Source: Clostridia bacterium (GTDB lineage: Bacteria > Bacillota > Clostridia > Christensenellales > UBA1242). Taken from it: 64,000 nucleotides of DNA. The notes under the pieces are model-generated. The model ran no database searches and was not told the origin of the DNA. It worked only from the letters and a program-made list of their open reading frames with translations. The translations under genes and the position numbers were made by a program. Below are positions 9,774 through 10,772 of this stretch, piece by piece (positions within the stretch are counted from its first letter, which is position 1; the number at the start of each line of letters is the position of its first letter). The stretch is from contig JAZRRE010000030.1 in the NCBI GenBank assembly GCA_045650505.1, positions 6,966-70,965 on the forward strand, given 5' to 3'.

Positions 9774-10772
9774 TTACACTCTCAAATCACTTGATATAAT
9801 ATTTAAATTTCCTGATAAAATTTCTTTTAAACCATAATTCTTTTTTGTTCTGTTATCAACAACTTTGTTTCTATCAAAATCAAAAATCAACACAGGTGTA
9901 TCTGCAAAAATTGCATTTTTTAATGAATTTCTTTGATTTTTTATATTTTTTTCTCTATTTTCTTTAGATTTTTGCAGTATTTTTTCTTTAAGTGCCGCCA
10001 TTGCTTTCTCTTTATTTTTGCCCTGACTTCTTTCATCTTGACACTCTGCAGTGATTCCCGTTGGAAGATGAATAAGTTTCACAGCACTTTCAGTTTTGTT
10101 TATGTGCTGACCACCAGCACCACTAGATTTTGAAATTTCAATCGCAATATCTTCTTCACGAAGTTCAATTTCTTTTTCACTGTCTAAAAGCACAACCACA
10201 AGTGCAGTTGTTTCGCTTGTGTTCTCTATTTTTCGAATTGTTCCACCAATCGATTTCAAAACTTCAAACGAATTTTCACCTTCAACACAAATTGAAATTT
10301 GCGAATCGGTTTCACTAATCACTTCGGTTTCAAATTTATTTAAAGAAGCATAATTTAAAACCAAATCTTTTAGTTCAAGAACAAGTCCACCATTTCCTTG
10401 TTTTTGTGAGATTTCAATTTTTGTTTTTTGAACTTCTTTTGAACCTTCATCAAAATAAATCTCTTTCACTTTTTCAAAAAGTTCATTTGATTCTTTTTCA
10501 AGATTTGCAGATGAACTTAAATATTCTTGTCTTTGAGTTTCATCAGTTTCGGTATCTGCAAGTTCTTTAGAAAGCAAAAATTCTTCATTCTTATTTTTAT
10601 ATTCTTTAAAAGCTGACACAACCTTTTCAAGTTTTGCCTTTGCCTTTCGATAATATTCAAAAAGTTTATTGTCTGACATAATTTCAACAGAGCATAAAAG
10701 TTCAAAATATTCATCATATTTTGCCTCCAACTCACAAAATTTATCATAATACTTTTGATTCACATTATCCAT
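9774..10772 (-). CDS. class-I peptide chain release factor homologue (RF1-like) with intact GGQ domain but no PxT/SPF decoding motif
   Basis: [25 protein letters not shown]...[14 protein letters not shown] is a canonical GGQ domain. N- and C-terminal regions resemble RF1. The only prolines are in HLPTG and DTPVL, both at or after the GGQ domain. Confidence 0.75.
   Translation of the reverse strand: [332 protein letters not shown]

Follow-up and report, generated by a model that had tools for sequence, protein, structure and literature searches.

A conserved family of full-length RF1-like proteins lacking the stop-codon-reading elements in Clostridia

In canonical release factor 1 (RF1), the GxxE motif at the tip of helix α5 reads the first base of the stop codon (U1), and the xGRIHTS loop reads bases 2 and 3. 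The known bacterial GGQ proteins that act independently of the stop codon are truncated: ArfB consists of a GGQ domain and a tail, and PrfH lacks domain 1. PrfH (RFH; TIGR03072) is an RtcB-linked rescue factor for damaged ribosomes, which does not read stop codons (PMC1586002, PMC9304027, PMC6514570). In the ArfA–RF2 and BrfA–RF2 systems, a full-length class-I factor acts without a stop codon and a partner substitutes for the codon (PMC6881298), and vertebrate mtRF1, which has insertions in its recognition loops, reads AGA and AGG (PMC9810596). A 2019 survey of release-factor evolution by Burroughs and Aravind named RF1, RF2, ArfB and PrfH as the only RF-type hydrolases of bacteria, and reported ArfB to be absent from Firmicutes (PMC6514570), which leaves room for another factor.

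Here we report the analysis of a gene in a 64,000-nucleotide (nt) stretch of a Clostridia bacterium assembly (GCA_045650505.1, contig JAZRRE010000030.1; the whole stretch is hereafter referred to as the window). The gene encodes a release-factor-like (RF-like) protein, and we refer to its own family as family A. What sets the protein apart is that it retains the complete four-domain RF1 body from which three codon-reading elements have been removed, and this holds across a clade formed by family A and two further families, B and C, the hosts of which are abundant but uncultured gut and rumen Clostridia. Judging from sequence and predicted structure, we lean towards the view that the RF-like protein is an RF1-derived paralogue that would hydrolyse peptidyl-tRNA on the ribosome without reading the stop codon, as a rescue or quality-control factor.

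Loss of the codon-reading elements from a four-domain release factor

The original prediction described a 332-residue protein that is RF1-like over its full length and bears a GGQ motif at 10107–10115, and both statements hold: the GGQ codons map to 10115–10107 on the minus strand (Table 1), and the Pfam domains PCRF (PF03462) and RF-1 (PF00472) match at 36.7 and 104.5 bits, against gathering cut-offs of 24 and 35, respectively. An AlphaFold2 model built from 60 family sequences has the four-domain RF fold, with a predicted local distance difference test (pLDDT) value of 87.2, in which the architecture of domain 1, the domain 2/4 body, the GGQ-bearing domain 3 and the long connecting helix is retained. 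The top Foldseek matches to the model are all RF1, RF2 or mtRF1 (E ~5e-19), mtRF1 (8oir_Aa) being among them, and the best match is ribosome-bound Escherichia coli RF1 (7m5d_A, template modelling (TM) score 0.67). Among sequences of solved structures, the closest are the RF1 proteins of T. maritima and T. thermophilus (E ~1e-33 to 1e-29), and domain 3 is approximately 50–59% identical to that of canonical RF1. With the PCRF and RF-1 domains, the fold and the GGQ motif all present, the gene belongs to the class-I release factor superfamily.

The protein nevertheless stays below the cut-offs of every curated model of a described factor. It scores 152.4 and 160.8 bits against the RF1 equivalogs TIGR00019 (cut-off 423) and NF001859 (cut-off 400), 125 bits against TIGR00020 for RF2 (cut-off 370), 86.7 bits against TIGR03072 for PrfH (cut-off 166.65), and 45.3 bits against NF006718 for ArfB (cut-off 100), the last match being limited to the GGQ segment (residues 199–234). 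By hidden Markov model score, it is thus nearer to RF1 than to RF2 (161 versus 125 bits). The RF-like protein fails both the defining features and the curated cut-offs of RF1, RF2, PrfH and ArfB, and is a member of none of them.

The elements that read the stop codon have been lost. As had been noted in the original prediction, proline occurs only twice in the protein, at position 237 within HLPTG and at position 293 within DTPVL, so that neither the PxT tripeptide of RF1 nor the SPF tripeptide of RF2 is possible. The prediction also held that the recognition hairpin is about six residues shorter and that the GxxE region is altered, and the alignments bear this out. In a HMMER alignment to the T. 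maritima and T. thermophilus RF1 proteins, PVT is replaced by ENT and a 6-residue gap lies over GGRIHT. A MAFFT alignment with E. coli RF1 makes the hairpin 7 residues short and the helix α5 tip 3 residues short (GTGGDEA in RF1, QGNGG in the RF-like protein), along with two additional small deletions and a substituted segment at the switch loop and entry to domain 4. In the AlphaFold2 model, the hairpin consists of two strands (residues 177–183 and 186–197) joined by a two-residue turn.

The losses of PxT, the GRIHTS loop and GxxE are present in all 60 aligned family-A members, and are therefore not due to chance or assembly error. The position of PxT, which reads ENT in the window protein, is mostly xGx across the family. 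The hairpin is always short, roughly [FL]SGx[IV]KK[IV]xxGxE, and only G177, two lysines, G/T185 and E187 are fairly conserved within it; the helix-tip region is variable in sequence. All three codon-reading elements are thus lost. With its PxT and GRIHTS loops and its α5 tip deleted or replaced, the RF-like protein, as far as its sequence tells, is unable to recognize UAA or UAG by the established mechanism.

A conserved family and its relation to canonical RF1

A search of 5.8 billion proteins yielded more than 100 family-A clusters (at 90% identity) with intact frames, 325–340 residues long and 41–100% identical to the window protein, and searching 1.84 billion representative proteins with a profile gave approximately 40 clusters at 50% identity. 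Named members are few and appear as 'PCRF domain-containing protein [Clostridia bacterium]'. The catalytic segment, with the GGQ loop and its flanking residues, is invariant in all 60 aligned members, as are H235, PTG, C244, RSQ and NK, in agreement with the intact catalytic domain that had been predicted. Two further segments are invariant in family A yet unlike RF1: a domain-1 motif (Table 1), and the switch-loop motif QRxxLKNAIFxxTPxxxFD[FY]DxNKV, where RF1 has GSGDRSERIRTYNFPQxRVTDHR. The persistence of an intact frame across more than 100 clusters shows that selection maintains the gene, which is thus no pseudogene, and the two segments argue that this selection is for something other than the decoding contacts of RF1.

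The profile search of the 1.84 billion representatives also revealed two more groups of full-length GGQ proteins without PxT (P0174–P0276), both from uncultured Clostridia and Christensenellales. Family B proteins have about 310–323 residues and carry 'LTYEEVLLDKKLF', whereas family C proteins have about 325–360 residues, carry 'APEIIADNxYWR' and 'FHSGGAGGQNVNKVETAVRITH', and retain RTYNF..VTDHR. Among these wider relatives, named members are annotated as 'peptide chain release factor-like protein' in metagenome-assembled genomes (MAGs) of Clostridia or Christensenellales. Families A, B and C score 135–209 bits on the RF1 equivalogs, compared with 522 (TIGR00019) and 523 (NF001859) bits for the canonical RF1 P0319. 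Neighbour joining places A, B and C together, apart from all canonical RF1 proteins, in 98 of 100 bootstraps, with C at the base and A and B nested inside it; long-branch attraction may exaggerate this monophyly. Several other proteins of 410–481 residues (P0169, P0171, P0210, P0254, P0266 and P0273) have canonical RF1 motifs, with PETE occurring twice in P0169, and could be fusions, duplications or assembly artefacts.

None of the resources consulted describes these families. There is no dedicated NCBIfam model for A, B or C and no PADLOC model for the RF-like protein, Pfam and PHROGs give generic RF-type matches only, and a literature search found no description of such a family. The conserved family of full-length RF1-like proteins without PxT is real, with no description found in the literature.

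Every readable family-A locus has the same gene order: relA, (a DNA-alkylation repair gene), gpsA on the opposite strand, the RF-like gene, a helicase gene, p237, p690, p90 and a HAD gene. When genome contigs were scanned with the full-length family alignment, whose patterns are common to canonical RF1 and family A, all 80 loci among the matches listed were canonical RF1 (26–31% identity). A scan of metagenome contigs with an N-terminal-only alignment returned a single locus (L088), with the same synteny, and searches of the phage and plasmid collections turned up no close homologue, the matches all being canonical RF1 with identities not above 31%. Family A is fixed at one chromosomal locus and is a vertically inherited lineage trait. 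The window host is low in GC (~33%) and carries, among others, SpoIIE, RelA, GpsA, IspH and GatAB; the lineage is one of uncultured, low-GC, spore-forming Clostridia, probably related to Christensenellales.

We compared evolutionary rates between the window and five diverged relatives, using genes of the same loci. The whole RF-like protein is 39–70% identical to that of the window, against 43–87% for RelA, 65–79% for GpsA, 56–87% for the helicase and 65–90% for p237, and is the least conserved of this set in four of the five comparisons. Within it, identities are 28–56% for domain 1, 28–61% for domains 2/4 and 57–91% for domain 3, so that only the catalytic domain is conserved as expected of an essential terminator. 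The pattern does not fit an essential sole decoder, because such a terminator is expected among the most conserved proteins.

Fast-evolving non-catalytic domains and lost decoding elements would also be found in a decaying paralogue, or in one that moonlights off the ribosome as a structural or regulatory protein or as a titrator of the PrmC methyltransferase. We consider this very unlikely: none of the 60 aligned members departs from the catalytic loop or from the motifs beside it that contact rRNA and tRNA, more than 100 clusters have unbroken frames, the family-specific motifs are conserved and the four-domain fold is confidently predicted.

If the RF-like protein were instead the sole RF1 of the organism, it would have to terminate at UAA and UAG by a mechanism unlike that of known class-I factors, for example through its rebuilt switch loop or a partner. 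This would agree with three observations. No other GGQ gene or canonical RF gene is present in the window or in any family-A locus read, the window stops are TAA (39) and TAG (5) with no TGA among 44 real open reading frames (ORFs), and a comparison of protein accessions, assembly and sample identifiers tied no canonical RF1 to a family-A assembly. In the latter comparison, the accession neighbourhood of MBO5889359 was unmatched with those of MBQ4541478, MBP3582209, MBR3885024 and MBQ8451807, and the identifiers for P0319, P0356, P0337, P0016 and P0344 included no assembly in common. Nonetheless, a sole RF1 is highly improbable in view of the rates above, with domains 1, 2 and 4 only 28–61% identical between relatives and the whole protein less conserved than the co-encoded GpsA, helicase and p237. 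Moreover, the recognition hairpin varies in sequence within family A, the RF1 equivalog score is at most 40% of the cut-off whereas RF1 from related MAGs reaches 523 bits, and the gene lies outside the rpmE–prmC–prfA context of canonical RF1 in Christensenellales-labelled MAGs. We know of no bacterium that lacks a PxT-type RF1.

Stop-codon usage bears on the same question. In the lineage loci (the window, L002, L004, L005, L099 and L101), TGA ends 3 of 133 called genes (~2%), and in mechanical ORF tallies TAG accounts for about 14% of stops in lineage loci and TGA for 26% in RF1 loci of other Clostridia. We considered that TGA might be unassigned in this organism and rejected it, as TGA is rare but used. 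With TAG and TGA both serving as stops, RF1- and RF2-type specificities are both needed, and a protein without PxT and SPF cannot supply them; the TGA stops by themselves call for one or more further class-I factors.

The canonical RF1 proteins that best match the family-A profile form the P0319 group, which has PDTE and GRVHTS motifs and passes the RF1 cut-off. Its hosts are MAGs labelled Christensenellales or Clostridia bacterium (28–30% GC), in which the gene stands in the rpmE–prmC–prfA context. Using only that half of the window which has no gene in common with these loci, we obtained tetranucleotide correlations of 0.73–0.78 between the P0319-group loci and the window, compared with 0.81–0.87 for known same-lineage loci and at most 0.67 for more than 80 other, unrelated loci. 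Taken together, the rate pattern, the separate A+B+C clade, the stop-codon usage, and the P0319-group match with its tetranucleotide signature favour coexistence: family-A genomes very probably also carry a canonical prfA, and we infer that canonical prfA and prfB lie elsewhere in the same genome.

Other candidates were rejected. A low-GC RF1 group with PDTE (L013 and others) is not the RF1 of this lineage, as its RadC and TilS are only 24–34% identical to those of the window and its tetranucleotide correlation is 0.33–0.48. Positional orthology of the RF-like gene and prfA by way of locus L036 fails because the context differs. The second GGQ gene beside a canonical RF1 in L050 (1285–6325, a Eubacteriales MAG) is an ordinary RF2 with SPF, in a secA–prfB–prfA tandem. 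Separately, one human-gut metagenome (ERZ28613985) contains two distinct P0319-group RF1 proteins that are 90% identical to each other (L089 and L104), and several species of the low-GC lineage therefore coexist in one sample.

Operon, promoter and neighbouring genes

The RF-like gene heads a tightly packed operon, the second gene of which encodes a superfamily 1 (SF1) helicase, and is preceded by a promoter-like site of the form TTGAAA-17-TGnTATTAT-6-ATG (Table 1), in line with the helicase operon and leaderless-type promoter named in the original prediction. This strong sigma-70-like consensus stops 6 nt short of the ATG at 10772, with no Shine–Dalgarno sequence, and the transcript would therefore be of the leaderless type, an arrangement that is, to our knowledge, unusual for a Firmicute operon. 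The same arrangement with identical 6-nt spacing occurs in eight of eight family loci (the window, L002, L004, L005, L088, L098, L099 and L101), even in the most divergent one, whose RF-like protein is 39–41% identical.

The RF-like, helicase and p237 genes are translationally coupled, and this arrangement is kept in all loci examined. The helicase motifs are all intact (I, GSGKT; II, DEVQD; III, GDALQ; IV, NYRN; V, KGLERD; VI, VSRAK). The helicase could not be assigned to a known family, as it has no NCBIfam match and only weak similarity to PcrA/UvrD in the Protein Data Bank (PDB), and a Upf1-like or HelD-like identity is unsupported. For p237, a PDB profile search returned coiled-coil noise only, and a single-sequence AlphaFold2 model was poor (pLDDT 58). 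A gene of 83–94 codons stands at the p90 position in L002, L004, L005/L006, L099 and L101. PADLOC gave no match for the RF-like protein, p690 or p90 and only generic GajB/UvrD matches for the helicase, and none of its defence-system models fits the operon gene set.

Table 1. Features of the RF-like gene and its operon in the window
Feature	Position	Strand	Evidence
RF1-like gene (family A), 332 residues; intact PCRF and RF-1 domains	9774..10772	minus	ORF, Pfam, NCBIfam, alignments, AlphaFold2, Foldseek
GGQ codons, residues 220–222 (G220-G221-Q222), inside invariant motif	10107..10115	minus	invariant in 60/60 members
Truncated recognition hairpin, residues 177–197, replacing RF1 HRVQRVPxTESxGRIHTSTATVAVLP; PxT lost, 6–7 residues deleted	10182..10244	minus	alignments, model
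Helix α5 tip equivalent, residues 120–132; 3-residue deletion, no GxxE	10377..10415	minus	MAFFT, family alignment
Family-specific invariant domain-1 motif SVE[IV]MSDxKLxxxY, residues 28–41	10650..10691	minus	family alignment
Family-specific switch-loop/domain-4 entry motif, residues 279–305	9858..9938	minus	MAFFT, family alignment
Promoter-like site: -35 TTGAAA (10807–10802), 17 nt, TG-extended -10 TATTAT (10784–10779)	10779..10807	minus	
UvrD/PcrA-type SF1 helicase, divergent, 818 residues; start codon abuts RF-like stop, 0 nt between	7317..9773	minus	
p237, 238-residue all-helical, coiled-coil-like protein; 1-nt overlap with helicase stop	6601..7317	minus	
p690, 693 residues; cytoplasmic N-terminus, one transmembrane segment, external GLUG-type repeats	4512..6593	minus	
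p90, 91-residue membrane protein, last operon gene; 8-nt overlap with preceding gene	4244..4519	minus	
Terminator-like hairpin followed by T-run, 28 nt past last operon gene	4186..4216	minus	

The operon structure, which is the basis of this suggestion, points to a possible partnership between the helicase and the RF-like protein. In a stronger form of it, the RF-like protein would be inactive alone and, like RF2 with ArfA or BrfA, would depend on a separate sensor, possibly the helicase or p237, to bring it to ribosomes that are stalled or have reached no stop codon. The conserved and translationally coupled genes speak for such dependence, as do the better conservation of the helicase and p237 and the invariant family-specific surface motifs in domain 1 and the switch-loop region. 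We regard it as unlikely, however, since the linkage is confined to one syntenic lineage and the helicase is of the UvrD/PcrA type, helicases known for work on DNA and RNA polymerase and not on ribosomes.

Alternatively, the protein could be a stress or abortive-infection effector, which upon induction would stop translation by indiscriminate release of nascent chains; the helicase and the envelope proteins would then belong with it to a module for defence or dormancy. A codon-blind release factor would be intrinsically toxic, the helicase is weakly similar to GajB-type defence helicases, and a leaderless mRNA could confine expression to particular conditions. Against these stand the PADLOC results, the absence of close homologues from the phage and plasmid collections, the strong promoter consensus and the vertical inheritance of the locus between housekeeping genes (relA, gpsA, HAD and rubrerythrin) across a deep lineage, and an effector role is quite improbable.

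Some further observations concern the operon and its surroundings. Two of the five TAG stops in the window end the operon genes p690 (4512–4514) and p237 (6601–6603), possibly by coincidence. A perfect sigma-70 consensus, TTGACA and TATAAT separated by 17 nt (4202–4174, minus strand), overlaps the terminator hairpin of the operon and stands before the next gene, which encodes a HAD hydrolase (3575–4156). The relA gene is adjoined by an overlapping gene pair of the BcrAD/BadFG activase–DUF2229 type (2-hydroxyacyl-CoA dehydratase activase-like; 14830–16140 and 16115–19096, minus strand), which is also found in L002 and L101 but not at that position in L004, L005 and L099. In the MAG GCA_017522705.1 (L005, 6773–8862), relA is in two pieces (649 and 56 residues), whereas the metagenome contig L006 (6772–8862), with an identical RF-like protein and the same neighbours, has a single 696-residue gene; the split is probably a frameshift error in the MAG.

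Farther upstream, a protein of about 345 residues (21917–22951, minus strand) has N-terminal zinc-ribbon motifs and a C-terminal hydrophobic stretch that possibly spans the membrane, and has no Pfam match. A gene of similar size lies upstream of relA in L005 (5603–6643), L088 (545–1585) and L099 (4245–5288), the sequences read being those of the window and L088. Large minus-strand ORFs without a Pfam match (E ≤ 1e-5) are located at 49647–52562 (971 residues), 58820–60157 (445 residues) and 20773–21777 (334 residues).

Proposed function and comparison with known systems

As an RF1-derived paralogue acting without stop-codon reading, the RF-like protein would dock in the ribosomal A site like RF1, A-site binding being most likely because the RF architecture is kept. 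It would place the GGQ motif in the peptidyl-transferase centre and hydrolyse peptidyl-tRNA independently of the stop codon, on stalled or aberrant ribosomes, in rescue or quality control. Selectivity might come from the invariant domain-1 motif and the rebuilt switch-loop region or, alternatively, from the co-expressed operon partners, the SF1 helicase and the coiled-coil p237. Because the hairpin and the helix tip are shortened rather than extended, we speculate that any codon, or none, could be tolerated in the A site, which would distinguish the protein from ArfB and tmRNA.

Several points weigh against this proposal. An unregulated, codon-independent release factor would be toxic; no canonical RF1 was tied to a family-A assembly in the comparison described above; and the clade that separates the protein from canonical RF1 carries the long-branch caveat. 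The helicase linkage occurs within a single lineage whose entire neighbourhood is syntenic, and is therefore not an independent sign of functional coupling. Furthermore, two genes farther down the operon code for envelope proteins that have no evident connection with translation.

If active, the RF-like protein would represent a new type of ribosome-rescue or quality-control factor. Its reduced A-site face might let it work while the mRNA channel is occupied, which ArfB and tmRNA cannot do. A new rescue pathway, in which the full-length, codon-blind factor and the SF1 helicase act on stalled ribosomes whose A site holds a sense codon, is a tentative idea that we rate as rather doubtful. In addition, the JGI label 'peptide chain release factor 1' on some members could mask a missing or present true prfA in the assessment of genome quality and the inference of genetic codes.

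The RF-like protein resembles RF1 (PrfA; TIGR00019/NF001859) in its domain order, four-domain fold and GGQ domain. It differs in lacking PxT, the GRIHTS-type loop and GxxE, in the shortened α5 tip and in the rebuilt switch loop; it is also approximately 25 residues shorter, evolves much faster and is not encoded beside prmC or rpmE. By analogy, it would work most like PrfH, ArfB/ICT1 and mtRF-R/mtRF1. Like PrfH, it is a GGQ protein with a divergent domain 2/4 and shares an operon with a nucleic-acid enzyme. However, PrfH is a protein of about 200 residues, linked to the RtcB ligase and spread horizontally, whereas the RF-like protein keeps domain 1, has 332 residues and passes by vertical inheritance together with an SF1 helicase. 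The gene has gpsA and the helicase gene as neighbours, with no rtcB.

ArfB/ICT1 (NF006718) are GGQ proteins that hydrolyse peptidyl-tRNA independently of the stop codon, as the RF-like protein may do. ArfB probes the empty mRNA channel with the basic C-terminal tail that follows its single GGQ domain, whereas in the RF-like protein this tail is absent and domains 1, 2 and 4 are complete. The mitochondrial proteins mtRF1 and mtRF-R (C12orf65) are, as is proposed here, RF1-derived paralogues in which the codon-recognition motifs are changed or absent and which occur alongside mtRF1a, the canonical factor. The loops expanded in mtRF1 are deleted in the RF-like protein, and the codon-recognition domains are wholly absent from mtRF-R. 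Finally, the ArfA and BrfA systems employ an ordinary RF2, with SPF intact, and a small adaptor, whereas in the family described here the RF-like protein has itself become specialized.

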